From assembly GCA_040879965.1 (NCBI GenBank), contig JBBDJI010000007.1:29393-93392 (forward strand): DNA of 64,000 nucleotides, in the 5' to 3' direction. Below the pieces are notes generated by a model, which was not told where the DNA came from, made no database searches, and saw only the letters and a program-made list of their open reading frames with translations. A program made the position numbers and the translations under genes. The stretch comes from Candidatus Babeliales bacterium (GTDB lineage Bacteria; Babelota; Babeliae; Babelales; JACPOV01). Positions 5,491 to 53,373 of the stretch are shown piece by piece (position 1 is the stretch's first letter; every line of letters begins with the position of its first letter).

Positions 5491-6038
5491 GGCTGCAAGC
5501 AACCGAGCTTTCAAACTACTTTGAGTTGCTTTCCCCATATTTCTTGAGCGTCCATTTTCTTTAGTTGATTTCTAACATATTTCCGAATTACTTCATCATT
5601 CGCGTTACCAATCGTTTCTACAAAAAAACTTTGAGTCCAAAGTTTTCCACCCCAAAAATATTTTTTCCTTATTTCGGGATATAATTTGAAAAAATTTCTT
5701 GCAGATATGCTTTTTATAATCTGCATAATTTTTGATGGACATTGCTTTGGCTCAGATTTTACTATCATATGTATATGATCCGTTGGCACTTCTAATTCTA
5801 CAATCTCAATATTGTAATCATATCCTATTTTGTATATTATTTCCTTCAAATTTGATCTGTATGGTTCTCTAAAAATTTTATGTCTGTATTTTGGAATCCA
5901 TACAAAATGATACATTATACGAAATACGTGATGCGAATTCCTAGTTAGTTCCCTAGCCGGATCCTTCATAATGAGCTTTCGCTCATTATAACGCTATCCA
6001 GCTAGGGAGCAAGCTCCCTAGATTTCCGCTACGCGGTT
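5491..6038 (-). mobile_element. IS200/IS605-family element (IS200 subgroup, tnpA only) inserted inside the IS1595 transposase gene
   Basis: Contains an intact 152-aa Y1/HUH transposase gene on the minus strand. GCAAGC-apex subterminal hairpins lie at both ends (CTCGG-CTGCAAGCAA-CCGAG 5495-5514; AATGAGC-TTTCG-GCTCATT 5976-5993; CTAGGGA-GCAAGC-TCCCTAG 6003-6022). Boundaries are inferred from restoring the IS1595 transposase reading frame (…GKEQL|KKQKSGIVFEG…) and are approximate. Confidence 0.7.
5511..5969 (-). CDS. tnpA: IS200/IS605 family transposase TnpA (Y1 HUH transposase)
   Basis: 152 aa. YHFVWIPKYR N-terminus, HUH motif DHIHMIV, and a C-terminal catalytic-Tyr helix RKYVRNQ. Confidence 0.85.
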   Translation of the reverse strand: MKDPARELTRNSHHVFRIMYHFVWIPKYRHKIFREPYRSNLKEIIYKIGYDYNIEIVELEVPTDHIHMIVKSEPKQCPSKIMQIIKSISARNFFKLYPEIRKKYFWGGKLWTQSFFVETIGNANDEVIRKYVRNQLKKMDAQEIWGKQLKVV

Positions 6039-6547
6039 AAAAAACAAAAATCAGGAATTGTTTTTGAAGGAGAAGTTGAAGCGGATGAAAGCTATTTTGG
6101 AGGAAAAAGAAAAGGAAAACGAGGAAGAGGTTCAGCGGGAAAAGTCCCTGTTTTTGGCCTTTTAAAGCGTGGAGGAAAAGTTTTTGCTGAAATAATACCA
6201 GATGCAAAAAGTAAGACTTTGATTCCTATAATCAAAGAAAAAGTGAGACCCGACTCTATCGTATATACTGACTCATTACCCAGTTACAATGCTCTTGATG
6301 TTTCTGAATTTAAACATCTTCGAATAAATCATAGTAAATTATTTGCTGAAAATCGTAACCATATCAATGGAATTGAAAATTTTTGGAATCAAGCAAAACG
6401 ACACATGCGAAAGTTCAATGGTATACCAAAAAAAAATTTTTATTTATTCTTAAAGGAGTGTGAATGGCGGTTCAATTTTTCATCACCAAAAAAACAAATT
6501 GATATGCTGACTCAGTGGATAAAATCAATAAAATAATTACTTAAAAC

Positions 6548-8038: not shown

Positions 8039-9025
8039 CTATCTTTGAGTAAAATATTTCCATCCAAACCAGCCCGCGTAAATTGCTAATCCAGTTAAGC
8101 CAATTCCTACACTAATTTTATAGAAATTTTTTATAGAAAATGATTTATTTGATTGGGTTTTAGAAATGTTTTCAATACTTGATTTTTCATTAGGATGGTT
8201 TACATGGTTTAATAAAGCTTCTTCTTCTCCTTCTGAATCATTTAGTTCATTTTTTTTATTGTTTGCCGTAAGATATTCTTTTTTTTCTTCTTCAGTTTCT
8301 GATAACACAGAGGAGCTGAAGCTTTCACTTTCTGTAGAAGACATATCAGATGTATTAAGGCTATATTCGCTATCACTTTTTTTTGTGATTGAATCTATCT
8401 TATTATCTTCTTCACTAGAACCTATATCCAAATCGGTACTGCTTTCACTCTCAGTTGTTTTATCTTTTTCGTCGTCATTGCTACTAGAAAGTTCGATTGA
8501 AGAATAATCATTTTTATTTGGTATTACCATCTGGTGTGTTTTTTGTAGAAATTTTTCTCCTGGAGTTATTCGGTTGCTTTTGTTTTGTATAGTAAACTTT
8601 TTTACTTTATTTCTATCCGTTGTCCCTAGAATGAGTGCGCCAAGCTTTTCTCCATAACCGCCTCGCTCGTAAAAGTTGACATATACCCAATTGCCTTGCC
8701 GAATCTTTATCCAATCTGCTGTTGATAGAGAAGCAAGTTGTCCTTGATGAATAAAATTATCTTTATCCGATTCATATTGAAAATAAGAAGTTGTAGCTAA
8801 AAAATATGAATTTGGGGATTGAGAATCAAGCATCTCTGATAATGTTTTTACTTCATAATTATCAAAATTGATTCTTATATTCTGATATTTTTTTCCGCTA
8901 AATATACGTATTTTTTCATTATTAATATTGTTATTCTTATCTAAAATTGAATTGCATAATTCCATTGATAATGTTTGATTAAATATACTGATTAATATAA
9001 TAAAGGTTATTATCTTATTTTTCAT
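8039..9025 (-). CDS. Hypothetical secreted/tail-anchored protein with an acidic Ser/Glu/Asp-rich low-complexity region
   Basis: 328 aa. N-terminal signal peptide, a ~150-aa globular region, ~100 aa of S/E/D-rich disorder, and a C-terminal TM helix (ISVGIGLTGLAIYAGWFGW). Confidence 0.5.
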   Translation of the reverse strand: MKNKIITFIILISIFNQTLSMELCNSILDKNNNINNEKIRIFSGKKYQNIRINFDNYEVKTLSEMLDSQSPNSYFLATTSYFQYESDKDNFIHQGQLASLSTADWIKIRQGNWVYVNFYERGGYGEKLGALILGTTDRNKVKKFTIQNKSNRITPGEKFLQKTHQMVIPNKNDYSSIELSSSNDDEKDKTTESESSTDLDIGSSEEDNKIDSITKKSDSEYSLNTSDMSSTESESFSSSVLSETEEEKKEYLTANNKKNELNDSEGEEEALLNHVNHPNEKSSIENISKTQSNKSFSIKNFYKISVGIGLTGLAIYAGWFGWKYFTQR

Positions 9026-10814: not shown

Positions 10815-11522
10815 TTATTTTTTAAATGGCCAAATAGTTTGCACCCAACTGGAAATACTTTGACCATAGTTTGTTAAGCTATAATAAGTTAATGCGCCAA
10901 GCAATCCAAAAGTGAGCGTATTTTTTAGAGTAAATTTGTTGGATAACCAAGTAAATTTAGAAAATTCCTCAAATTTATAACCATTTGGTCCATGTATAAT
11001 CTTATCTGAAGATGTTGCAATTATTCCTTTTTGTAATAAGTCTTCTTTGTCACAATAAAAATAATTAGGATCGTTCTTGAAATCTTGGAAATAATAATCT
11101 CTAATTATTTCAAAAAGACCATTTGTATATTGGTTATAGTTGCATCCTTTTTGCTTCGCGGTTAAAATGATAGGTTGACCATAGACTGTTAAAAACAATT
11201 GACCACCTTCTTTTAGGTCTTTAATTAAATAATAAGGTAAAGAGTTAGGGAATTCTATTGTTTTCTCGTTATCTATATTCTTAACTTTAACATCAAATAA
11301 TGGCTCATTTGGGTCCAATTTTACACCTAATGCTTTCTCGACATTTTTTGGTTTTATATTAGCATCTAAACCGCTGCCTGCATACATGGGTGCCGTAGGT
11401 ATTAAAAATAATTCACCCTGCAAAGGCGTTATTTCTTTTGGAGTTTTCATACCTAAACACGAAACACTTAAGGATGATAAAATGATAATAAGTAATAATT
11501 TTTTCATAATGAAACCTACCAA
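10815..11522 (-). CDS. Hypothetical lipoprotein/secreted protein
   Basis: 235 aa. Signal peptide with Cys (LSVSCLG). No recognisable domain. Confidence 0.5.
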   Translation of the reverse strand: MVGFIMKKLLLIIILSSLSVSCLGMKTPKEITPLQGELFLIPTAPMYAGSGLDANIKPKNVEKALGVKLDPNEPLFDVKVKNIDNEKTIEFPNSLPYYLIKDLKEGGQLFLTVYGQPIILTAKQKGCNYNQYTNGLFEIIRDYYFQDFKNDPNYFYCDKEDLLQKGIIATSSDKIIHGPNGYKFEEFSKFTWLSNKFTLKNTLTFGLLGALTYYSLTNYGQSISSWVQTIWPFKK

Positions 11523-20663: not shown

Positions 20664-21173
20664 ATGAAAAAATTTTCTTTACTTGTAGTTTTATTGTTTT
20701 TAACTTTATCGTTGCAAAGTTTTGATAGTAAAATAACTTTTGATTTCGAAGCATCGAAAAAAGATATTTTTGAAGAAAAAAAATCAGATGAAGAGCAAGC
20801 TGTAGCAGAAAAAATAAAAAATGCTCAAAGAGGAATGTTAAAGCTTATTTTTGAAAAATTTAGAATAAGTGAAAAAGCTAAAAAAAATGGAAATGGTGAA
20901 CAAGTAGATATTGCTATTGGAGCAGCCCAAAGGATATTTGAAGAAAGTGATGGTCTTTTTAAAGATTTGTGGATCAGGTTTCTTTCAGGAAATATATCAT
21001 CAGAAAAATTTAATTTAGAACGATTGAAAATACTAGAAAAATTGCCAAGAAATGAAGATTACAAATATACTGACTATGATATGAAAATTTATTTTGGCAA
21101 AGGATTGGGTGTTGGTATCGCCGGTGGGGTTTTTGCTTCGCTTATTATTAAGTTGGTTTTATTGTCTTCTTAG
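20664..21173 (+). CDS. Hypothetical secreted protein with a C-terminal hydrophobic anchor
   Basis: 169 aa with a signal peptide. Lys/Glu-rich. Confidence 0.45.
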   Translation: MKKFSLLVVLLFLTLSLQSFDSKITFDFEASKKDIFEEKKSDEEQAVAEKIKNAQRGMLKLIFEKFRISEKAKKNGNGEQVDIAIGAAQRIFEESDGLFKDLWIRFLSGNISSEKFNLERLKILEKLPRNEDYKYTDYDMKIYFGKGLGVGIAGGVFASLIIKLVLLSS

Positions 21174-28155: not shown

Positions 28156-28758
28156 ATGGTTTCTATGGGTTATTTTCAAATTGTATCAATTTTTATTCTT
28201 TTGTGTTCAATTGGGCTCCATGGCCGAAGTAGTAATGTAATAGAGCATATTCGTGCTACTGAGCATTATTTTAAAAAACAGTTAGGTAAATATAAACGTG
28301 AAATTAGTGCTAATATTGGGTTAGTGCTTTCAAAGAATCAAAAACATATTGCTCATGAGGGCGTTCGGGTTGATCAGCTTAATATGAGACATATTGCTTT
28401 GGGTAATTTGAATAAAAAACAATTAAAATTAACTGGTTTGCATACTGATCAATTTTGCCCAGAAAAAATTAAAAAAGTTATTATTCCGCCCAATGAAAAA
28501 GGTATTTGGTTGGGTCAATGGAAAGATGAAAGATCTAATTTAGCTAAAATTTCAAGTTTTTTCCCTTCATTATGGTCTGCATCAGTAATTGTTGATAACA
28601 TTATTGAATCATTAGCTCACATTAAAGGGATAAAATTAGTTAGAAATGGTGTACGCATTTTAGGTAAAACAAGCAATGACATTAATATAGAATTGTTTAT
28701 TAAGCCTGATGGTACTATTCAAACTGCGTTTCCAAGAATTAATCCCAAAAAAATTTAG
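28156..28758 (+). CDS. Hypothetical protein with an N-terminal signal/anchor
   Basis: 200 aa. No recognisable motif. Lies 6 nt after tkt. Confidence 0.4.
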   Translation: MVSMGYFQIVSIFILLCSIGLHGRSSNVIEHIRATEHYFKKQLGKYKREISANIGLVLSKNQKHIAHEGVRVDQLNMRHIALGNLNKKQLKLTGLHTDQFCPEKIKKVIIPPNEKGIWLGQWKDERSNLAKISSFFPSLWSASVIVDNIIESLAHIKGIKLVRNGVRILGKTSNDINIELFIKPDGTIQTAFPRINPKKI

Positions 28759-30436
28759 TGTTAACTGGTAATTTGCCCAATGCCTGTTGATTACCAAGAA
28801 TTACATGCGCTGCCGTGCGTTGTGCTTCAGGATCATTTTCATAGGCTAAAAGAAGTATGTTTTCTTTCTCAAATAACCGTAAGCTATAAGGGCTTCCAAA
28901 AATAGTTATTATTATTTTTTTCCCTTTGTTTTTTAAATCATTAATAAATTGGTGCGTTTTTTCATGAATGCCAAAATTAGTTTTAATATTTTGATTCATA
29001 CCTAATAGCGCAATAATAATTGTTTTTTTATTATTAATTTTTTGCATAACATAATCGATAGTTTGCTGCGGCATGTCGGTAGAAATATGAAATGAAGGGA
29101 TATTCATTGCTGATTTTAATATTTTTTCAAATTCGCTCGGAATAGTACCACCAATTTGAATAAGAACCGAATCATCATATTTTTTACTAGCTAGAGGGAT
29201 CAAATTTTGTTCGTCAGTAACTACGCTGGTAGCATTATTAAAAAGAGCTTGTTTTAATTGATGCGCATAAAATGTGTTAATTACAAGGGTATTTTTGTTA
29301 TCAACAAAACGCGATGTATGTACATTCATTCTTTCTTTTGCTTTTAATATTTTTAATACCCGTTGATTTAATTCTTCTTCAGATATGACTTTGTCTTCAA
29401 TGGCTTGTTCTATTAATGCAACTGTTTTTGGTACATCAAGCGGACACAATATAATATCTGCACCAGCCAAAAAAGCCTTAAATTCAGCATAACCGGGTTT
29501 GTGATATTTGGTGATTCCCTTCATGCCCATACCATCGGTAACAACAAGGCCTGAAAAGCCAAGTTCTTTTTTGAGTAAATCAGTAACAATTGGATAAGAT
29601 AAACTTGATGGCAAATAAGGTGTGCTATCTAATGCGGGGATTTTTAAATGAGCAGTCATTATGGCAGCAATACCTGCGTTAATAAGTTGTTTAAATGGAT
29701 AGAATTCATTTTCATATAATTCTTCACGTGTTTGTAAAACCAGCGGTAATTTTGCATGAGAATCAGTATAAGTATTGCCATGACCTGTAAAATGTTTTCC
29801 ACATGCTAAAATACCAGCGTCTTGCATACCTTGCATTAAAAGTATGCCATATTGAGCGACACGTTTTTTATCGTCACCAAAAGAACGCATATGGATAATT
29901 GGATTTTCAGGATTAGTATTAATATCTATTACGGGCGCAAAATTAATATGCACACCTATTTTTTTACATTGCCGACCAATTTCATAACCAAGATCATATA
30001 TCAGTGATTCATCTTGAATGGCACCGAGCGTCATATTTCGAGGAAAAGAAATGCCATCATATAATCGCATGCCAAGCCCCCACTCAGCATCTTGTCCAAT
30101 CAATAAGGGAATGGTACTTATTTTTTGGAAAAGATTCGTTAGCATGATTTGTTGATTAATATTTTGTTTGTATAAAAAAATAAGACCACCAATGTGATAT
30201 TCTTTAATGAGTTTTTCAATGTAATCATGATTCATTAAATAAGGCGATTCAAGGATTGCTTTTGCAATAGTTTCTTCATGCATATGTAAATTGGCACATG
30301 TTGCGACCATAAATAATTGTCCGATTTTTTCACGCAGGCTCATGGTTGTGAGTGTTTTTTCTGCCCATGATTGATTTTGTGCACAAAGCATTGAAGATAT
30401 AAGAATATTTAAAATAAGAAACCAATAATACTGCAT
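28739..30436 (-). CDS. Glycoside hydrolase family 3 protein (beta-N-acetylhexosaminidase/beta-glucosidase-like), secreted
   Basis: 565 aa. Signal peptide and the GH3 N-terminal domain pattern (LLIGQDAEWG, KHFTGHG, VVTDGMGMKG). Confidence 0.65.
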   Translation of the reverse strand: MQYYWFLILNILISSMLCAQNQSWAEKTLTTMSLREKIGQLFMVATCANLHMHEETIAKAILESPYLMNHDYIEKLIKEYHIGGLIFLYKQNINQQIMLTNLFQKISTIPLLIGQDAEWGLGMRLYDGISFPRNMTLGAIQDESLIYDLGYEIGRQCKKIGVHINFAPVIDINTNPENPIIHMRSFGDDKKRVAQYGILLMQGMQDAGILACGKHFTGHGNTYTDSHAKLPLVLQTREELYENEFYPFKQLINAGIAAIMTAHLKIPALDSTPYLPSSLSYPIVTDLLKKELGFSGLVVTDGMGMKGITKYHKPGYAEFKAFLAGADIILCPLDVPKTVALIEQAIEDKVISEEELNQRVLKILKAKERMNVHTSRFVDNKNTLVINTFYAHQLKQALFNNATSVVTDEQNLIPLASKKYDDSVLIQIGGTIPSEFEKILKSAMNIPSFHISTDMPQQTIDYVMQKINNKKTIIIALLGMNQNIKTNFGIHEKTHQFINDLKNKGKKIIITIFGSPYSLRLFEKENILLLAYENDPEAQRTAAHVILGNQQALGKLPVNTKFFWD

Positions 30437-32517: not shown

Positions 32518-33681
32518 TTATTTTAAAAGATTTGTAAGTGATCTTAAACTGCCAGTAAGTTTTTCTAACTCATTTGATAACGCTTTGAATGCTATCTGTT
32601 CGGCTTCTTTGCGCTTGCGTTCTTTTTCTAGTTTTTGCCATAATTCATATTCTGATCTTGTTATCGTTGTTTTTTGGTAAATAAAAAGATAGCCTGTTCC
32701 TTCGGTGGCTGATCCAGTAATGTCATTTGGTATATTTTCTCTAGAAATGTTTACCGGAGTTATTACGCTATCATTACACTTATACCATTGTTCATTAGTT
32801 TTTACATAGGCCCAATAATGTCCTCCTTTCGCGGTTCCTCCTTGTATAATTACTCCGATAAGTTCATAGTGTTTGTTTTCTGGATCTTTTGGTCTAGTAA
32901 ACAGAAATTCTGATATATTAATTTTTAAAGGGATATCAATTTTATGAGTTAATTTTTGTGTTTGTGTAGAAGAAATATATTGATATCTTTTTAAGGTAAT
33001 CTGTAAAATTTCTGGTGAATTGAGTAGTTTGAATTGTTTAGTACAATCAAGTCTGTTTTTGTTTGTAAAAGTATCACGGTAGGGGTCTTGAGGATCAGAG
33101 AATTTCTCTTTTTTAAAAAAACTTTCAAGACAAGCCATAAGAGAGGTTAAGGGAATTTCGTCATCGATTACTTCTACTTTTATTGATAAATCTGATTCAG
33201 GAGGAAGTCCTTTGGTTGAAGCTGAAAAGCCTTCAATTGCAGGGCACTCAATAATTGGTTTCAGATAAAGTTTAAATAATACTCTAATCGATCTTTGTAG
33301 CGCAGTATTTGCCAGAAGATCATTTAAAAGATAAAAGAAAAATTCAGTTGCATCTTCTTGAGCACCACACTTAAATCCTGGAATTTTTTCTGGTGCTTCC
33401 TTATCCAATTCGCCTAAAACGGTGTCACACGAAAAAATATGTGGTCTATTTTCTTTTTCAAATTCTTTTATCAATTCTGTGTAAAGATAACTCAGTGATC
33501 TGGTACTTGATGAATAAGGATTCGGATTTGCTGTTAAAATGTTTGTAAGAGGGTTAATATTATAAAGAGCTTGAATTGAAGCATTTAAAAAGCAAGTATT
33601 GCCACAATTTGCTAAACCAGGAGGCTGTGGTTTTAATTGAATAAAGCTAATTATAAAAATAATAAATAATATTTTTTTCAT
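32518..33681 (-). CDS. Ubiquitin-specific protease (USP/UBP, peptidase C19)-like protein with an N-terminal hydrophobic signal/anchor. A eukaryotic-type deubiquitinase and candidate secreted effector.
   Basis: 387 aa. Canonical Cys box GLANCGNTCFLNASIQALYN at residues ~22-41 and His box GGHYWAYVK...WYKCNDSVITPV near the C-terminus. Confidence 0.8.
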   Translation of the reverse strand: MKKILFIIFIISFIQLKPQPPGLANCGNTCFLNASIQALYNINPLTNILTANPNPYSSSTRSLSYLYTELIKEFEKENRPHIFSCDTVLGELDKEAPEKIPGFKCGAQEDATEFFFYLLNDLLANTALQRSIRVLFKLYLKPIIECPAIEGFSASTKGLPPESDLSIKVEVIDDEIPLTSLMACLESFFKKEKFSDPQDPYRDTFTNKNRLDCTKQFKLLNSPEILQITLKRYQYISSTQTQKLTHKIDIPLKINISEFLFTRPKDPENKHYELIGVIIQGGTAKGGHYWAYVKTNEQWYKCNDSVITPVNISRENIPNDITGSATEGTGYLFIYQKTTITRSEYELWQKLEKERKRKEAEQIAFKALSNELEKLTGSLRSLTNLLK

Positions 33682-34564: not shown

Positions 34565-36637
34565 TTATTCGTATAATTCTTTTCGAGTTAATTGAATTGC
34601 ATTGTTCATTAATTTAATCACGTCTTTAGTTTCTAATGGCGTTGTTTCCAACGAAAAATCCCATTGTTCATTGCTCGTTTTTTGGGGTTCTTCCAATCGA
34701 GAATAGCGATTAAACCAGATACCATCATGATGCTGCCATAGGTTTTTTATTTTTGAAAAATCAGTATCTTTTTGTAGTTTTGAAAAAAGTAAAACCGGCA
34801 TGTGATAAAGATAGATTTGATTTTTTTTAAGCCATTGATAATGGGCATAAAAATTATTATTAAAAGTGGCTAAAATAAGCGGTTCTTGTGCCGAGCTAAG
34901 CCCAGCCATGATGCCTTTATACAACCATGAGTGGGGTAGTGTAATATTATAAGCAGCAATAAGTGCAGTAGGTAGTTTGTTATTAATATGATTTTTAATT
35001 TTTTTGCCGATATTTTTTGCTTCTTGTTTTAAAACTCCAAAATAATTTTGCAATTGATTATGCTCAATTAAATACTTAACCCGATCGTTAACTTTGTTAA
35101 GTTTAGCCAAGTTTGGATTATTGTCTGCTATATAAAATTTTTGCCAAGCAAGATCAGAAAAATCCATTAAATTAGTATATTGGCCAGTTTGATTTTGCGC
35201 ATGATACATTTCAAAGTCTAAGAAAATGCCAGCAAGCGGCAGATTATTACTGATGTTATGTTGCCATTCTTCGTAAAAACGATCAAAAACTTCAATAACC
35301 TCTTTTTGCCAGTAATTTTCAAAATCTAATGGACTTGGGACTTTAGTATAATTTTTACCATACATATCTTTTGTGCTTTCTACAGGAGCCTTGGTGCCAA
35401 AATTACCTGAGATTTCCATGCCAATAAAAACATGAGGAAGTGGTAATTTTAATTCAATCGATTTTTGTTTGAGTGCAGCAGTAAATCGAAAAATACTTTC
35501 AAGAAATTCTTTTTTTTGTTCAGAGGTTTTAAAAGCATTATCGCTGAAATATATTTCCGGGTTAAGTTGTAGCCAGAGCATGTTTAATCCCGATTTTAAC
35601 AATCTTTCAGCTACTTCATTCTCTTTGCCATTAAATGGGTCTATTGCCATCCAACCGCATGCAATACCTTCTTTTTCAATCCAATAATATTTTGGGAATA
35701 CTGTTTGTTTTCGTTCTTGTTGAGCACGTTTTTTTTCTGCCAGACTGAATTCTGGAGTCAATTTTTTTGGGAATACTGTTTTATTTTTATGTGATCCAGT
35801 AAGAGTATGAAATATTGCAAAAACTTCTTGCAAACCAGAAAGTAATGCTAGTCTTAATTGAAAATCTACCGGGTTAAGAGTAAAGTTTTCGGCAATATCG
35901 GCGAAGGTTAGGTATTGTGCGCTCGTAATAATAAAATCATTACCAGTAGCAAGATTTTTAGTATGAAAACCAAGTGGATATAAAGGTGAAATTTTTGGAT
36001 ATGCTTCAAAAATACTACGATCTGGCAATGGTTTAATTATATTGTTTTTAACTTTTTTATTGTGAAGAATATTGAGCAGTGTGTTTTTATTTTCTCGTTC
36101 CATTAATAAGGCTGTATCATAGCGATAACTTTTGCTTGCACCAGAATAAAGTAGGTGTGTGAGTAATTCTTTGGTAGATTGATCTAAAGGAGAAGTACTA
36201 AATACGCCCATTTTCTTTAAAATTTTCTGTACATACGAAAGTCCAATAGCAACATGATTGCCAACTGATGGTAATGCAATCATAATAACTTTATTCTTTT
36301 GATTTTTGATTATTTCAAAAACTTGATATATCTGTTTTAACAATGGACTTCTTATTTTATGTTTTTGTGCAAGTTCTCGTGATGTAGCACTTAAAAAAGC
36401 CGGATCAAGAATTAAAAGTATTGCTTGAGCATGTTCAATATCGTCTTTTGATACTGCAGTGATATGACGAAAATCGGGCAAAAAACCTACTGACTGCGCT
36501 AAAACATGAGTATTGCGATAAACATAAGGATGATTAAGTGCAGAATCAATAATGAGAAGTTTTTCATCCGCAGATAAGCAATGATAATTAAATAAAGAGC
36601 CAATAAAGCTAATAACTAATATTTTTGAAAAATTCAT
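34565..36637 (-). CDS. Large hypothetical secreted protein (possible TIM-barrel glycoside-hydrolase-like fold)
   Basis: 690 aa with a signal peptide. Motifs such as GIFLDFEMYH and WLQLNPE are suggestive but not diagnostic. Confidence 0.4.
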   Translation of the reverse strand: MNFSKILVISFIGSLFNYHCLSADEKLLIIDSALNHPYVYRNTHVLAQSVGFLPDFRHITAVSKDDIEHAQAILLILDPAFLSATSRELAQKHKIRSPLLKQIYQVFEIIKNQKNKVIMIALPSVGNHVAIGLSYVQKILKKMGVFSTSPLDQSTKELLTHLLYSGASKSYRYDTALLMERENKNTLLNILHNKKVKNNIIKPLPDRSIFEAYPKISPLYPLGFHTKNLATGNDFIITSAQYLTFADIAENFTLNPVDFQLRLALLSGLQEVFAIFHTLTGSHKNKTVFPKKLTPEFSLAEKKRAQQERKQTVFPKYYWIEKEGIACGWMAIDPFNGKENEVAERLLKSGLNMLWLQLNPEIYFSDNAFKTSEQKKEFLESIFRFTAALKQKSIELKLPLPHVFIGMEISGNFGTKAPVESTKDMYGKNYTKVPSPLDFENYWQKEVIEVFDRFYEEWQHNISNNLPLAGIFLDFEMYHAQNQTGQYTNLMDFSDLAWQKFYIADNNPNLAKLNKVNDRVKYLIEHNQLQNYFGVLKQEAKNIGKKIKNHINNKLPTALIAAYNITLPHSWLYKGIMAGLSSAQEPLILATFNNNFYAHYQWLKKNQIYLYHMPVLLFSKLQKDTDFSKIKNLWQHHDGIWFNRYSRLEEPQKTSNEQWDFSLETTPLETKDVIKLMNNAIQLTRKELYE

Positions 36638-36824: not shown

Positions 36825-37745
36825 TTGATGAAAAGATATTTAGCTTTTTTAATGATTTTTTGTTTTAGTTTTAATTGCTTTGGGATGGAAGAGATTCGAG
36901 TAAAAGAGCAATCTTCAAAAGAGTCTAAAAAAGAGAATGAAGAATATAATAATCCTACTAGAGTTGTAGAACCAGATGATGATAATAATACTCAATATGA
37001 TGCAAAAAAGTATAAAATTAATTTTGGTGGAAATCCTGTAGATAATGTTAATATCGGTCTTAATATTGACATTGATCAAAAAAAACCAGCAAAACCAGAA
37101 CATCCTTTAATGAAACAAATTATAAGTCATACTCTAAACGGAATTGCTGCTGGCGCAAGTCAGACAACTGGACAATTATTAGTTCAACTTGTAGTTCAAC
37201 ACGGTTCAGACTTTTATAAATATATATCTCCAAATCCGCAAGAAGTAGTTGTAAAAGAGCAAGAACTTGGCAGTATTAAACAAGCTGCTCTTACACAGTT
37301 AAAAAATCTATTTGATAAAAATAAGCAATTTATAGGAACACTACCGATTGATCAAAAAATAAAAAATCAATTATTGGCAGAAAACCAGCAAAAATTGGCA
37401 GAAATTCTTTCAAGTGATTATCAAGCGCAAAAAAATGAAAAAGCTACTTGTGAAGATTTGCGAAAAGCAAATAATATTCTAAGTAATAATATTATAGTGA
37501 TAAGTAATATTATGGATGAATGTAATAAAGCAAAAACAAAAGAAGAAAAAGAGTTTTGGCAAAAACGTTTTATCCAAGAGCAATTATCTTTTCATGAGCA
37601 ACTTGTTAAATCAGCTAAACAAGAAGAAAATCAATTTAAAAAAGTATTATCAAAAAGTACCCCATACGTTGCGTGTGTAGCCGGTGGCGTTGCTACTGGT
37701 GTTGCTGGAACAGTAGGGTTGCTAGCAATGCTTGCCCCAAAGTAA
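36825..37745 (+). CDS. Hypothetical secreted coiled-coil protein with a C-terminal hydrophobic anchor
   Basis: 306 aa. Signal peptide, Q/K/E-rich helices, and a C-terminal VACVAGGVATGVAGTVGLLAMLA tail. Confidence 0.5.
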   Translation: MMKRYLAFLMIFCFSFNCFGMEEIRVKEQSSKESKKENEEYNNPTRVVEPDDDNNTQYDAKKYKINFGGNPVDNVNIGLNIDIDQKKPAKPEHPLMKQIISHTLNGIAAGASQTTGQLLVQLVVQHGSDFYKYISPNPQEVVVKEQELGSIKQAALTQLKNLFDKNKQFIGTLPIDQKIKNQLLAENQQKLAEILSSDYQAQKNEKATCEDLRKANNILSNNIIVISNIMDECNKAKTKEEKEFWQKRFIQEQLSFHEQLVKSAKQEENQFKKVLSKSTPYVACVAGGVATGVAGTVGLLAMLAPK

Positions 37746-44927: not shown

Positions 44928-45681
44928 ATGATTTATTGTAGTATCTTATGCAAAAGAAACAAGTTGCGCCGCAAAAAATAAATAAAGAAAGCCATTGGTT
45001 TATTGAAAATAATGGCAAAGAATTAGAAAATTGCTGATCTCCTCTAAAAAAATCAACAAAAAAGCGTTCTAAGCTAGCGCAGACTAGATAGATATACAAG
45101 AATGATCCATCAAAGAAATTATTTTTCCGGTAGATATATAAAAAAAGAAAAATACTAAAAAGGATAATAGAGCTATAAAGCTGAGTAGGATGAATTTTTA
45201 TCAATGCTGGTGCAATTTCAAAAGGAGTAGAATACATAATACCAAAAAAAGAATTGGTAGGTTTTCCAAAGCAACAGCCGGCAAAAAAACAACCAATCCG
45301 GGAAATACTTTGTAAAAGTGGTGCATAGGTTGCGCATAAATCAAGCGTTGAAAATAGTGGTATACCATGTTTGTTAAGAAAAAAAGGAATGGTTGCAATA
45401 ACTGCAATTATGCTTCCTAAAACGGAAAAACCACCATGCCAGATTTCAAATATATTAATTGAATGTAAATATGAAAACTCCGTAAGAATATATAAAACAC
45501 GTCCACCAATTATTGCAGCGGCAATACCAATGGTGATAAGCGAAATAAATTGATCATAAGTAAGCAAGACCGCTCTTCGAGCATCACGATACATGAGATT
45601 CATAAAGGCAAGAAGCCCGAGAGCGATACAGATGCCATAACTTTGTATATAAATAGGGCCAAATAAATGTAAGATTTTCAT
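44914..45681 (-). CDS. lgt: Prolipoprotein diacylglyceryl transferase
   Basis: 255 aa membrane protein. WHGG motif, an RIGCFFAGCCFG signature-like segment, and HPTQLY. Confidence 0.75.
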   Translation of the reverse strand: MKILHLFGPIYIQSYGICIALGLLAFMNLMYRDARRAVLLTYDQFISLITIGIAAAIIGGRVLYILTEFSYLHSINIFEIWHGGFSVLGSIIAVIATIPFFLNKHGIPLFSTLDLCATYAPLLQSISRIGCFFAGCCFGKPTNSFFGIMYSTPFEIAPALIKIHPTQLYSSIILFSIFLFLYIYRKNNFFDGSFLYIYLVCASLERFFVDFFRGDQQFSNSLPLFSINQWLSLFIFCGATCFFCIRYYNKSYEPL

Positions 45682-46337
45682 CGTTTTTTTGTTTTAAGGG
45701 TATCAAGGTTTACAAAATTTATTGGTGAAGCATTTTTAATATCAAGGCGGAAATCAGATTCCCAAGTAAATTCTAAATCGAAATCAGTTTCTTTTTTTGA
45801 TAGATTAAATTCAACAGCATGATTTTCGCGATGATATAAAATTCCCCATTTTTTAAATTCACATTCATAACAAATTTGAAGGTTATTTTCAGTTAATTCG
45901 AAAGTTTTTTTTGTATTTAAATCGATTTCTTTATTTTGTATTGAAACAATGAATTTTTCTGGAATAACTGGCCATGGTGCGGGAGGTTTTCGGTAAGTAA
46001 CCATATCCTTTGTTATTTTATTATGTATTGTGATAATGCGAGTTTTTTTTTCATCTTTTTTTAAAATAGAAGTGCTATTTTCTTTTTTCGTTGATTTTAT
46101 GGGCTTCTCCAATATTAAGTTTTTACTCTTGTCGGATTCTTTTTCTTTTGAAGAATCTAATGAAATTTTTTCTTGATTATTAAAACAGAGAGAAGTTTGC
46201 TTTATTGAATCATTATGTTGTTGATTACTTTCTAAACTTTTCTGCTGTTTTTTTGTAGAATAATGACCTTTTTGAGAAAAAATAAATAGAGAAAAAAAAG
46301 TACAAAAAATAATAAATATATACACTGTTTTTTTCAT
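45678..46337 (-). CDS. Hypothetical secreted protein
   Basis: 219 aa with a signal peptide and a Lys/Ser-rich middle. Confidence 0.45.
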   Translation of the reverse strand: MKKTVYIFIIFCTFFSLFIFSQKGHYSTKKQQKSLESNQQHNDSIKQTSLCFNNQEKISLDSSKEKESDKSKNLILEKPIKSTKKENSTSILKKDEKKTRIITIHNKITKDMVTYRKPPAPWPVIPEKFIVSIQNKEIDLNTKKTFELTENNLQICYECEFKKWGILYHRENHAVEFNLSKKETDFDLEFTWESDFRLDIKNASPINFVNLDTLKTKKR

Positions 46338-49324: not shown

Positions 49325-50395
49325 ATGAAAATCATGATTTATCATATAGCTTATTATTTAAAATCCATTTGGTCTTTTTTTAATGTAGTGCATTATGTTA
49401 GTTTTCGTGCAATGGCTGCTTTATTGAGTTCAATTTTTTTTTCTTTTCTCTTTGGGCAACAATTTATCGAGACTTCAAAGCGATTTTTTAGATCAAAAGC
49501 ACGAGAATGGACACCTTCTTCTCATCGAGCTAAAGATAACATGCCGACAATGGGTGGATTGTTTATTTTAGCAATTGTTACCTTGAATATTTTATTATGG
49601 TGTAATTGGTATAAAACAGATATATGGATTTTTTTAGGTTGTTTGATTGGTTTTGGTGCAATCGGTTTTTACGATGATTGGGCCAAGATCAAGCATGGTA
49701 AAGGAATGAGTGCTGGTTTAAAATTTAAATTACAAGTATTTATAAGTGCAGTTACTATTTTTCTTTTTATTATGAATGGCTTATCAACGACGGTAAGTTT
49801 CCCTTTTGTTAAATGGTTAATGCCTGATATTAGTTGGTTTTATTTAGTTTGGGCAGTTTTTATTATTGTAGGTTGTAGTAATGCAGTTAATCTAACTGAT
49901 GGGCTTGATGGCTTGGCAATTACTTCACTAATACCGAATTTTGTAATATTTTCCATACTCTGTTATTTGGCTGGTCACTATAAAATTGCGCATTATTTGC
50001 ATATTCCATTTGCTGGCAGTGCAGAAATTACCGTTATTGGTGCAACACTTGTGGGCGCTTCGATAGGATTTTTGTGGTATAACGCATATCCGGCACAAAT
50101 TTTTATGGGAGATGTTGGTTCTTTAGCGCTTGGCAGTGGTTTGGCATTAATGGCACTTTTGTCAAAACAAGAAATCTTATTGTCTGTTTCTGGAGGGTTA
50201 TTTGTAATCGAGGCACTTTCAGTAATAACGCAAGTTGGCTCATATAAATTATTTGGAAAAAAAATATTCAGAATGGCGCCAATTCATCATCATTTTGAGC
50301 TGCTTGGTTGGCCAGAATCAAAAATTACCGCACGATTTGGAATTATTTCTCTTATTTTGTGTTTGCTTGCTTTAATGACGATAAAAATGCGTTAA
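49325..50395 (+). CDS. mraY: Phospho-N-acetylmuramoyl-pentapeptide transferase
   Basis: 356 aa. PTMGG, NAVNLTDGLDGLA and MGDVGSLALG motifs. Confidence 0.9.
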   Translation: MKIMIYHIAYYLKSIWSFFNVVHYVSFRAMAALLSSIFFSFLFGQQFIETSKRFFRSKAREWTPSSHRAKDNMPTMGGLFILAIVTLNILLWCNWYKTDIWIFLGCLIGFGAIGFYDDWAKIKHGKGMSAGLKFKLQVFISAVTIFLFIMNGLSTTVSFPFVKWLMPDISWFYLVWAVFIIVGCSNAVNLTDGLDGLAITSLIPNFVIFSILCYLAGHYKIAHYLHIPFAGSAEITVIGATLVGASIGFLWYNAYPAQIFMGDVGSLALGSGLALMALLSKQEILLSVSGGLFVIEALSVITQVGSYKLFGKKIFRMAPIHHHFELLGWPESKITARFGIISLILCLLALMTIKMR

Positions 50396-50396
50396 A

Positions 50397-52055
50397 TTAA
50401 TATTTAAAAAAATATGTGTTCAAGAGGTTTTTTGAATATGAAGAATAAGAAAATAAGAAAGCCTTAATAGTTTTATTTAAAAATAATTTAGAAAATAATG
50501 AATAAGCAAAATGAAAACTAATAAGACCCAATATTATTTTAAAACTTTTAAGTCTTGTTTTTTCTTTTTTGATTTCTAACTTTTTTTGCTCAATTTTTTG
50601 ATTTACAATTGGAATATGTTTTTTAAATATATTTTCCAGAGGTTCAATATCAAAGTGTGTGTCATAAGCTGAACTATGTTTAAAAAGCATCCAGGGGGTA
50701 TTAATTATCATTGATAATAATTCATGGATATATTCATTTACATTATTTATTTTTGAAAGAGTTGTTATTTTGATTAATTTATTTTCATAAGAAACAATAG
50801 CTTCTTCAGCTAAAGAAACAAAATGTGGGTCGATTAGTTGCATAAATTCTTTTTCGATTGGTGTTAAATCGATAATGGAGGATTCATTTTCATTATATGG
50901 ATAATATTGATGTAAAGTTAAAATAGCTTCTGCTGTCGTTTTCATATAGTTTTTGATAATAGAAAAATCTTCAGTAGGTATTAAAGAATTAGAATAAGAA
51001 TTAATATTATTTAATATTGCTAATTTATCTATTTCATTTAATTGAGCGCCATATTGCAACAGTAAAAAAAATATTTTCCAGTCATGGTGTTTTTTATTTA
51101 TTTTTTTTAGTGCATATAAATATGCTGTTTTATCTTGGGAATCTAATATGTTGAGTGATGCACCTTTCTTTAATAAATTTTCAGCTAATTTATAATCGCC
51201 TTTCTCCACTGCTATATGTAAAAGAGTTGATCCATAAAGGTTTTTTTTGTTTATATTTACTAAATTTTTCGTCACTAAGCACTTAAACAAAGAAAAATCA
51301 TTAAGCATTGCTAGCTGATCAGGGGTAATAATGTTGTACTTTAATAATAGATCATACTCATTACCGGTATTATTAGGTTTTTTTGTTAATATACCAATCT
51401 GTTGTATAGACGGTTTAGCCCCTTTTGCAAGTAGCTCATTTAAAAATTTATTATTTTTTGTAGTTAAAGCGATTTCTATTAATTTTTTATTATTTATAAT
51501 CCATTTTGGGTCTACTAAAGCTAAAATTTTAGTAAATCTATTTATATCTTCATTTAATATTAAATGATGCAAAGCTGTTGTTGGATTTATTCTATGATCT
51601 GAAAATAATGTTTTAATTAGTTGCCAATTAAAGCAATAGCAATCTATAGCCGTATTGATATTGGCTTTGCAATACTCATTTAAAATATTTGGGTAGGTAG
51701 TTATTAATGCCCTGAGTTCATAAATTTTTGTATGATGTGTTTTATATAAACGATAGCAAAGTAAATCATCTAAAAAACTACTTATAAAAAAATATTCTTT
51801 TTCTGTCAGTGATTGGGAAATTAAAGATTCTATTATCTTAAATTCAATTTCTACAGGAAGTTTTATGTTTTTATATTGTTTTTTTTCATCGATTAATAAA
51901 TTCTGAGGTTGTTTTTTAGAAACTTTTTGTTGCAAAGCTTTTTTGTAATTATCTAAACCCGAAGAATGCGATAATGACCTAACTAAGACTTTTTGTTTCA
52001 TTGAGTAAGATAATGGAAAAAAAGTGAATGAAATGAGACAAATTATTTTATGCAT
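50397..52055 (-). CDS. F-box-like plus ankyrin-repeat protein with a C-terminal hydrophobic tail (eukaryote-like candidate effector)
   Basis: 552 aa. F-box-like segment IKLPVEIEFKIIESLI near the N-terminus. Ankyrin repeats (e.g. GSTLLHIAVEKGDYKLAENLLKKGASLN, KTAYLYALKK...LLQYGAQLN). C-terminal TM. Confidence 0.6.
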   Translation of the reverse strand: MHKIICLISFTFFPLSYSMKQKVLVRSLSHSSGLDNYKKALQQKVSKKQPQNLLIDEKKQYKNIKLPVEIEFKIIESLISQSLTEKEYFFISSFLDDLLCYRLYKTHHTKIYELRALITTYPNILNEYCKANINTAIDCYCFNWQLIKTLFSDHRINPTTALHHLILNEDINRFTKILALVDPKWIINNKKLIEIALTTKNNKFLNELLAKGAKPSIQQIGILTKKPNNTGNEYDLLLKYNIITPDQLAMLNDFSLFKCLVTKNLVNINKKNLYGSTLLHIAVEKGDYKLAENLLKKGASLNILDSQDKTAYLYALKKINKKHHDWKIFFLLLQYGAQLNEIDKLAILNNINSYSNSLIPTEDFSIIKNYMKTTAEAILTLHQYYPYNENESSIIDLTPIEKEFMQLIDPHFVSLAEEAIVSYENKLIKITTLSKINNVNEYIHELLSMIINTPWMLFKHSSAYDTHFDIEPLENIFKKHIPIVNQKIEQKKLEIKKEKTRLKSFKIILGLISFHFAYSLFSKLFLNKTIKAFLFSYSSYSKNLLNTYFFKY

Positions 52056-52071: not shown

Positions 52072-53373
52072 TTAGATGTTTTTAGATTTATAATTTTTAA
52101 ATAAGTACATGATTACACCAAATACAATATAAAACAAAAAAAATATGAGATGTTCTGTTTTTGCTACAGTAAAGTTTCTAATACTCATCGTTAATAAAAT
52201 TAAGCAGCTGCCAAGACCAAGCCAGGCAATAGGCGGAAAGTAGTTGCCTTGATTAAACGATAACCTTAAAAGAGCGATAATACTTAAAGTAAAAGCAATG
52301 ATTACACCTAAAACGCTTATTTGTTGAAGAGTGGTTTGATGCCCTAATGTTGTTAATAAATACATTATACAAACTAATCCTTCAAATAAAACGCAAAAAA
52401 AAGGGATGCCATATTGATTTTTGCGCCTAAATAAAGAGGCAAAAAAAATATGCTTTTGTTCAGCTAATATATACAAATTCCATGCATTACTAAAAATCAT
52501 ACCATAAGCACCACCCAATGCTGATGATGCACCAGCAATATGTAATATATTAATAATATGTTGAACTAATACTTTATTATTTATGATAAAAGTTTTGAAA
52601 AGAGAAGGGAAAATATCAAGAAAAGAATTACTTTCAAATAAAAGTGTCCCTAAAACTAAAAAAATAATCAATTGATAAATTATGGTAATAGTAATAGTAA
52701 AAATAAAAGAATAAAAAATAGCACGAACTGCATTTTTCTGTGGATTTTCGATCGTTTGACTCAATGCACAGGCGGCCTCAAAGCCAAGAAAAGCATATAA
52801 TACAAGCGGTATAGTACTTGGAATGGCAGCCCATTTTAATGTTTGAGCAGGAATAGTCCAATGATTAAATAAATATATACCGGCGAGAATTACAAAAATA
52901 ATCGGCACTAATTTTAAAAAAATAAATAAATAGGTAATTCGTGTGCTTGTTTTTAAGCCATAATGATTAATCCACATAAATAGTGCAAGAGTAAAAATAT
53001 CTAGAATAAAGGGATTAATAGTTGCAAGAGTAAAAATAATGGTTTGCATAAGCAACGAAAAAACATGAATAAGTAATGCTGCAGAAGCAAGCTTACCAAT
53101 AAAATAAGCCCAAGTGCTTAAAAACCCCCAAAAAGGACTTAATTCATACGCGGCATACGCATAAAAACCACCTTCAGGGTATTTTTGTATAAGCTGAGTG
53201 ATTGCAATAATCAATGGCAACAAGATTAAGGCAACTAAACAATAGCTTACAAAACCAAAAAAACCAGCAATTTTAATGAGGTTAATGGTATTAATAAATA
53301 CGCCAGTACCAAACATAATATTAATATTTATTAAAGTGGCTGACCGTAAAGACAATTTGCCAGTTTCTGCCAT
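52072..53373 (-). CDS. Amino acid permease (APC superfamily)
   Basis: 433 aa, 12 TM, with an APC-type N-terminus (SLRSATLININIMFGTGVF). Confidence 0.65.
   Translation of the reverse strand: MAETGKLSLRSATLININIMFGTGVFINTINLIKIAGFFGFVSYCLVALILLPLIIAITQLIQKYPEGGFYAYAAYELSPFWGFLSTWAYFIGKLASAALLIHVFSLLMQTIIFTLATINPFILDIFTLALFMWINHYGLKTSTRITYLFIFLKLVPIIFVILAGIYLFNHWTIPAQTLKWAAIPSTIPLVLYAFLGFEAACALSQTIENPQKNAVRAIFYSFIFTITITIIYQLIIFLVLGTLLFESNSFLDIFPSLFKTFIINNKVLVQHIINILHIAGASSALGGAYGMIFSNAWNLYILAEQKHIFFASLFRRKNQYGIPFFCVLFEGLVCIMYLLTTLGHQTTLQQISVLGVIIAFTLSIIALLRLSFNQGNYFPPIAWLGLGSCLILLTMSIRNFTVAKTEHLIFFLFYIVFGVIMYLFKNYKSKNI

Follow-up and report, generated by a model that had tools for sequence, protein, structure and literature searches.

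We analyzed a gene for an ankyrin-repeat protein in a 64,000-nucleotide stretch of DNA from a Candidatus Babeliales bacterium (assembly GCA_040879965.1, contig JBBDJI010000007.1, positions 29,393 to 93,392), referred to below as the window. The window belongs to a metagenome-assembled genome (MAG) of the Babeliales, in the Dependentiae (TM6), and the Dependentiae are obligate intracellular parasites whose hosts are amoebae and other protists. A sequence-only reading, made from the letters of this DNA, had described the gene product as an F-box-like and ankyrin-repeat protein with a C-terminal membrane anchor that mimics the ubiquitin system of the host. The observation was partly confirmed and its interpretation partly supported by the present analysis, and the supposed setting in an intracellular bacterium was right.

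The open reading frame (ORF) lies on the minus strand at 50397..52055, stop codon included and exactly in the position first noted, and encodes 552 amino acids (aa). From M19 on, it is 100% identical to the NCBI protein MEX0939904.1 (534 aa, from a Babeliales MAG), which is annotated as an ankyrin-repeat protein only, while a separate gene call, made on a Logan assembly (P0008), gives the full 552-aa form. The following features were assigned to the protein, where pLDDT denotes the predicted local distance difference test score of the AlphaFold2 models.

50397..52055, minus strand: whole ORF, 552 aa, the same protein as MEX0939904.1
52002..52055, minus strand: leader, aa 1-18, MHKIICLISFTFFPLSYS, Sec-type signal-like, assigned by inspection
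51864..52001, minus strand: K/Q/S-rich, low-complexity linker, aa 19-64, with no family match; pLDDT 30-38
51819..51863, minus strand: helix-1-type LPxEIxxxIIxxL motif, aa 65-79, KLPVEIEFKIIESLI, the sole stretch that aligns to F-box profiles
51588..51818, minus strand: helical region of unassigned fold, aa 80-156, without the F-box helix 2/3 signature and without relatives; pLDDT 35-51
51318..51587, minus strand: about 3-4 putative degenerate ankyrin-like repeats, aa 157-246, for example TALHHLILNEDINRFTKIL and KLIEIALTTKNNKFLNELLAKGAKP, below Pfam detection and assigned from the model and from reading the sequence
51030..51317, minus strand: ankyrin repeats, aa 247-342, above Pfam gathering scores, with the canonical repeat GSTLLHIAVEKGDYKLAENLLKKGASLN at aa 275-302
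50544..51029, minus strand: helical C-terminal region, aa 343-504, without relatives, the last part of which is a strongly basic helix, KIEQKKLEIKKEKTRLKSFK
50475..50543, minus strand: moderately hydrophobic, aromatic-rich segment, aa 505-527, FKIILGLISFHFAYSLFSKLFLN, a marginal candidate for a transmembrane or membrane-associating element
50400..50474, minus strand: C-terminal tail, aa 528-552, aromatic and Ser-/Lys-rich in sequence, KTIKAFLFSYSSYSKNLLNTYFFKY

The ankyrin repeats claimed by the sequence-only reading, for which it had proposed a profile search, were borne out. All five models of the ankyrin clan considered in Pfam (PF00023, PF12796, PF13606, PF13637 and PF13857) exceeded their gathering scores at aa 247-342, namely Ank_2 (40.5 bits versus a cutoff of 27.3), Ank_5 (33.3 versus 27), Ank (31.1 versus 21.1), Ank_4 (27.2 versus 22.7) and Ank_3 (24.9 versus 22.3), and the protein matched designed ankyrin-repeat proteins (DARPins) and ankyrin-1 in the PDB with a best E value of 5.6e-25. 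Two to three repeats are detectable by sequence. One of them (aa 275-302) fits the 33-residue ankyrin consensus cleanly and a second fits in part. The AlphaFold model has regular helix pairs over approximately aa 158-336 with pLDDT values of 55-88, and its confidence is highest at aa 161-220 (71-88). Together with our reading of the sequence, the model suggests some three to four further degenerate repeats at approximately aa 157-246, which would bring the total to about six. The NCBIfam AnkY identity was rejected, as its score of 25.7 bits versus a cutoff of 600 reflects ankyrin similarity alone.

The second claim, that of an F-box at the N-terminus, was not upheld. A helix-1 pattern of the F-box, LPxE(I/L)xxxI(F/L)xxL with the conserved L-P dipeptide, is present at aa 65-78 (KLPVEIEFKIIESL), and the candidate motif keeps the F-box helix 1 spacing L1-P2-E4-I5-I9-I10-L13-L18. 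In shuffles of the ankyrin protein the extended pattern occurred at a frequency of 0.08% and the short pattern at 1.2%; over the approximately 20,000 ORF residues of the window, about 0.03 and 0.45 occurrences are expected, respectively. However, the definition of the pattern is post hoc, and I, K, N, F and Y make up 42% of the sequence. The profile search that had been proposed returned no F-box-type Pfam family (F-box PF00646, F-box-like PF12937, F-box_5 and others) at E <= 10, whether it was run with the full protein or with N-terminal fragments of 51, 76, 92, 142 and 247 aa, whereas the positive controls, 42-aa F-boxes of Skp2 and Fbxw7 taken from PDB alignments, matched F-box-like at 6e-17 and 9e-17 and F-box at 2e-11 and 1.6e-10. 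An N-terminal region that fails to match F-box profiles and cannot bind Skp1 had been named as the outcome that would speak against an F-box, and the computational half of this outcome is what we observed.

PRANC (PF09372), a poxvirus-type F-box-like domain associated with ankyrin repeats, gave a weak match with the 92-aa fragment only (E = 0.086, 13.6 bits versus a gathering score of 25.8, profile positions 73-92), and this match was gone with the full protein and with each of the other four fragments (51, 76, 142 and 247 aa). A PRANC identity was rejected on the grounds that the match is below threshold and depends on the fragment ends and that the motif lies N-terminal to the repeats. Pfam matches to GST_C_6, DUF6718 and Swm2, the last of these in the C-terminal region, were also rejected as below threshold and unstable.

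Since the filters of HMMER hide weak matches, a home-made F-box hidden Markov model (HMM) was run with all filters off. This model, a rough proxy for those of Pfam, was built from two PDB-verified sequences and 15 canonical F-box segments. Only its positions 2-15 of 43 were aligned, and the whole-sequence score was 1.3 bits, which corresponds to E ≈ 1.1 across 62 ORFs of the window, is reached by 7% of protein shuffles and is equalled by ORF 28739..30436, a GH3 glycosidase. An hhalign comparison with the F-box profile covered 18 columns (columns 2-19) at a probability of 12.8%. Both alignments end after helix 1 and contain no counterpart of the helix 2/3 signature (V-C-K-x-W ... L-W), at the positions of which we read S93, D96 and R102 and no W. 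A PDB sequence search with the N-terminal part found no F-box protein.

Structure prediction was uninformative for this region. As the non-ankyrin parts are without relatives, no alignment could be built, and the single-sequence AlphaFold2 models of both the full protein and an aa 58-350 construct have pLDDT values of 30-51 over aa 1-160, which is uninformative and not negative. A Foldseek search of the PDB gave generic alpha-solenoids only, none at E <= 0.001, and is likewise uninformative.

These results bear directly on the proposal that the protein is a Skp1-cullin-F-box (SCF) adaptor similar to Legionella AnkB, in which a divergent or truncated F-box-like LPVEI... segment would bind host Skp1, the repeats would recruit substrates for ubiquitination and the tail would anchor the protein in place of a farnesyl group. 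The proposal draws on the exact helix-1 consensus with its LP dipeptide and preserved spacing and on the rarity of the extended motif in shuffles; however, the motif was chosen after the fact from an I/L/K/E-rich sequence, and no homologs exist that could show its conservation, nor any usable structure. The weak PRANC match falls exactly on the motif segment, but it is sub-threshold and lost on moving the fragment ends. The order of motif, ankyrin repeats and hydrophobic C-terminal end parallels that of AnkB, yet helices 2 and 3 do not align, the score ties with a glycosidase and is reached by 7% of shuffles, and no F-box-type Pfam family is matched versus about 1e-17 and 1e-11 for real 42-aa F-boxes. 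Its remaining support is that the phylum has F-box proteins and secreted ubiquitin-specific proteases (PMC4378268), one of which is encoded in the window. On this balance we regard an AnkB-like adaptor as rather unlikely.

The segment LPVEIEFKIIESL most likely resembles F-box helix 1 by chance, in a drifting sequence rich in I, L, K and E, or else represents a remnant. An F-box-like element in truncated or degenerate form may nevertheless be present. As the F-box is itself unsupported, so is the ubiquitin-ligase-adaptor mimicry that had been compared to AnkB, and present evidence does not justify listing the ankyrin protein among ubiquitin-ligase adaptors. We give little credence to a further reading in which LPVEIEFKIIESL binds Skp1 by helix 1 alone, as a minimal element of an ankyrin protein that is exported by Sec and associates with membranes. 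This would be a new and highly reduced bacterial F-box mimic that escapes current profiles, in a phylum for which no effector injection system is known. Skp1 binding by the motif would mean that reduced F-box mimics are escaping profile detection, and a helix-1-only mimic would imply cryptic SCF adaptors among many of the relative-less ankyrin proteins of Dependentiae and of other symbionts of amoebae.

At the N-terminus, aa 1-18 (MHKIICLISFTFFPLSYS) have a basic n-region and a hydrophobic core of 12 residues, with small residues at -3/-1 (S-Y-S), in a layout read by inspection as MHK / IICLISFTFFPL / SYS. This segment, overlooked in the sequence-only reading, is a putative Sec-type signal peptide. 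Similar leaders occur on about 19 of the approximately 55 real ORFs of the window, including those for the USP hydrolase described below and the GH3 glycosidase. This share, about one third, agrees with the frequencies in Chromulinavorax destructans, where signal peptides were reported in 44% of all proteins and in 78% of ankyrin proteins (PMC6561590). The two available gene calls differ at this point: NCBI starts at M19 (window position 52001), and P0008 at the first ATG (52055). Neither start has a clear ribosome-binding site (RBS) on inspection. The public annotation probably cuts off the secretion leader of the ankyrin gene, and if M19-type starts are systematic, annotations of such MAGs may be missing secretion signals.

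The C-terminal membrane anchor that had been proposed survived in part: a hydrophobic tail exists at aa 505-527, with 25 residues after it and thus within the roughly 30 C-terminal residues where a tail anchor belongs, but as an anchor it is marginal. Within it, aa 507-526 form the sole segment of the protein with classical transmembrane hydropathy. Its best 19-aa Kyte-Doolittle (KD) hydropathy is 1.61 and its summed apparent insertion free energy (ΔGapp) on the biological scale of Hessa is about +3.5 kcal/mol. Real membrane proteins of the window (MraY, two permeases and others) have KD values of 2.1-2.75 and ΔG <= 0, and the values of the tail overlap those of soluble enzymes such as MnmG (1.76 and +5.1) and the product of ORF 58693..61026 (1.80 and +4.1). 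A strongly basic helix precedes the segment, aromatic and Ser-/Lys-rich residues make up the 25 that follow, and the protein ends in ...FFKY, with no CaaX box. A PDB search with the C-terminal part gave nothing relevant. From these properties, peripheral or weak membrane association appears plausible, while a firm transmembrane anchor seems unsupported.

Another type of C-terminus was noted in ORFs 8039..9025 (minus strand), 20664..21173 (plus strand), 36825..37745 (plus strand) and, weakly, 10815..11522 (minus strand), none of which has a significant Pfam match. Their products carry a leader and, at the extreme C-terminus, a glycine-rich hydrophobic helix followed by K/R; examples of the ends of these soluble leader-bearing ORFs are ...KGLGVGIAGGVFASLIIKLVLLSS, ...YVACVAGGVATGVAGTVGLLAMLAPK and ...KISVGIGLTGLAIYAGWFGWKYFTQR. 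This architecture resembles a C-terminal sorting or anchoring signal.

The ankyrin gene is set among conserved housekeeping genes, which include a SpoU methylase and MnmG in addition to its two immediate neighbours.

49325..50395, plus strand: MraY, convergent with the ankyrin ORF and 1 nucleotide apart from it
52072..53373, minus strand: amino-acid permease, 16 nucleotides upstream of the ankyrin ORF and on the same strand

In a synteny search based on MraY, only two loci (L001 and L002) were close enough to inform, the other 78 being from unrelated phyla. The MraY proteins of these two closest syntenic genomes are 65% (L001) and 55% (L002) identical to the copy in the window. Both keep the order of MraY, a slot and the convergent permease, and in both the slot holds no ankyrin gene; instead, it contains unrelated leader-bearing ORFs of 136 aa (L001, 8080..8490) and 143 aa (L002, 2269..2700). 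An exhaustive phmmer search of 1.84 billion representative proteins with the ankyrin-deleted sequence found no relatives: apart from the protein itself there was one match, which is spurious. This match, P0007, is a repetitive surface-type protein with a low-complexity match to the linker and was rejected as a relative. At 24.4%, the GC content of the gene is the lowest of 46 long ORFs of the window (32.5 ± 2.9%; the window average is about 32%), and no paralog was found within the window. The variable slot, the lowest GC content, the absence of a window paralog and the lack of relatives of the flanks all point to a young or fast-evolving, lineage-specific gene.

Base composition and missing relatives could also be read as decay, with an ankyrin ORF that drifts under AT mutational pressure and flanks that no longer code for folded domains. 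The lowest GC content in the window, the share of I, K, N, F and Y residues, the degeneration of most repeats and the low AlphaFold confidence outside the repeats would all fit a non-functional gene. However, low pLDDT is what any single-sequence prediction would give, and an intact frame of 552 codons at 24% GC, where stops arise easily, argues for selection, so that decay seems very improbable to us.

The same genomic data are relevant to the idea of a bacterial envelope protein that never enters the host. In this scenario the protein would be Sec-exported, its C-terminal helix would hold it in the periplasm or inner membrane, and its repeats would bind a bacterial partner, for example in self-protection or immunity; a Bdellovibrio ankyrin protein has been reported as a self-protection or immunity protein, according to the citation of that work in PMC6561590 (reference 30). 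A leader combined with a C-terminal hydrophobic helix recurs in window ORFs 8039..9025, 20664..21173 and 36825..37745, although the tail of the ankyrin protein is only marginally hydrophobic and its flanking charges are unlike those of a stop-transfer anchor. The gene lies 16 nucleotides downstream of the same-strand permease and may be co-transcribed with it, but it is unconserved even in close relatives, whereas an envelope protein with a housekeeping function would usually be conserved. The window shows no evident dedicated system for effector secretion; the ankyrin expansions of the phylum, however, are generally read as host-directed. We consider an envelope role unlikely.

Two further observations were made in the window. 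ORF 45678..46337 (minus strand, 219 aa) has the second-lowest GC content of the window (25.6%), a leader and no Pfam family, and its product may be another fast-evolving exported protein. Adjoining transposase ORFs of Y1 and DDE type are found at 5511..5969 (minus strand) and 6219..6536 (plus strand). The former type is an IS200-like Y1 transposase (PF01797, E = 3.4e-40), and its neighbour is a fragment with the C-terminal half only of an ISXO2/IS1595-type DDE transposase domain (PF12762, positions 68-153 of 153). Both are remnants of mobile elements, in the small genome of a parasite.

The window also encodes the deubiquitinase that had been reported about 17 kilobases from the ankyrin gene.

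32518..33681, minus strand: USP/UCH (C19) deubiquitinase, 387 aa, PF00443, with the N-terminal signal-like leader MKKILFIIFIISFIQLKPQ

This assignment held, with a full-length PF00443 match above the gathering score (147.4 bits, E = 7.7e-43, profile positions 2-254 of 254). In Babela massiliensis, one F-box protein, a RING protein and three secreted C19 ubiquitin hydrolases have been described (PMC4378268), and other TM6 genomes contain F-box, WD40, leucine-rich repeat (LRR) and tetratricopeptide repeat (TPR) proteins (PMC4776705). The combination of an F-box protein with a secreted C19/USP hydrolase is thus already published for the phylum, in Babela massiliensis (PMC4378268). Beside the USP gene, at 34565..36637 (minus strand), lies a 690-aa ORF without a Pfam family at E <= 0.001; its product bears the N-terminal leader MNFSKILVISFIGSLFNYHCLS and is a candidate for another exported protein.

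We find it probable that the gene at 50397..52055 encodes a lineage-specific, exported ankyrin host-interaction protein of a Babeliales parasite, within the large and fast-evolving ankyrin class of the phylum. Translation would begin at the first ATG, and the 18-residue Sec-type leader would direct export across the inner membrane. The solenoid of about six repeats would present a surface for binding another protein, probably one of the host, as the usual function of ankyrin repeats and the lifestyle of the organism suggest, and the basic helix and moderately hydrophobic aromatic C-terminal tail may keep the protein at a membrane. Several points weigh against this account. The extended helix-1 motif is fairly rare in shuffles (0.08%), with about 0.03 chance occurrences expected in the window, and is located N-terminal to the ankyrin repeats, in the same place as the F-box of AnkB. 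Poxvirus-type F-box-like domains are truncated and hard for profiles to detect. The signal-peptide assignment is heuristic, the NCBI pipeline chose M19, and there is no clear RBS at either start. The strongly basic segment ahead of the hydrophobic tail is a poor fit to a simple stop-transfer anchor after Sec export.

Ankyrin, F-box and secreted USP hydrolase proteins are already reported for Dependentiae (PMC4378268, PMC4776705, PMC6561590), and the present gene adds one lineage-specific ankyrin protein to them. For annotation of AT-rich, I/L/K/E-rich proteomes, a 15-residue LPxEI motif is insufficient as a basis for F-box assignment. The variable slot, flanked by conserved housekeeping genes and occupied by different leader-bearing ORFs in related genomes, may offer a simple route to host-interaction genes in such MAGs.

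When compared with known systems, the protein shares with Legionella pneumophila AnkB (PDB 5k35, with Skp1) the order of an LP motif, ankyrin repeats and a C-terminal, possibly membrane-associating element. The LP dipeptide of AnkB is essential for Skp1 binding (PMC2790608), and the candidate has this dipeptide as well. In contrast, the AnkB F-box is found in the PDB by a plain F-box consensus at E = 0.008, whereas the candidate segment is unrecognizable; the crystallized AnkB chain has 182 aa versus 552 aa in the candidate; and AnkB is a Dot/Icm type IV substrate with CaaX farnesylation, whereas the candidate has a Sec-like leader, no CaaX box and a marginal hydrophobic helix.

The PRANC or poxvirus-type ankyrin and F-box-like proteins, which also occur in Orientia, Rickettsia and Wolbachia, similarly combine repeats with a short truncated motif that eludes standard F-box models. 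Their F-box-like element is C-terminal to the repeats, however, while the motif of the candidate is N-terminal, and the weak PRANC match on this motif (13.6 bits versus the gathering score of 25.8) was irreproducible with other fragment ends. As in the ubiquitin toolkit of Babela massiliensis, the window contains a leader-bearing C19/USP hydrolase (PMC4378268). This likeness concerns the hydrolase; for the candidate, equivalence to the Babela F-box protein is not demonstrable.

The ankyrin expansions of Dependentiae/TM6, a typical trait of this phylum (PMC4776705, PMC4378268) seen in Babela massiliensis and in C. destructans with 98 copies, differ from the candidate in that its N- and C-terminal flanks have no relatives anywhere, including other Dependentiae, and in that it is a single gene between housekeeping genes with no paralog array. 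They resemble it in belonging to the same order, Babeliales, in their Pfam-grade ankyrin repeats, in the signal-like leader, present on 78% of C. destructans ankyrin proteins (PMC6561590), and in their lineage-specific, fast-evolving character.

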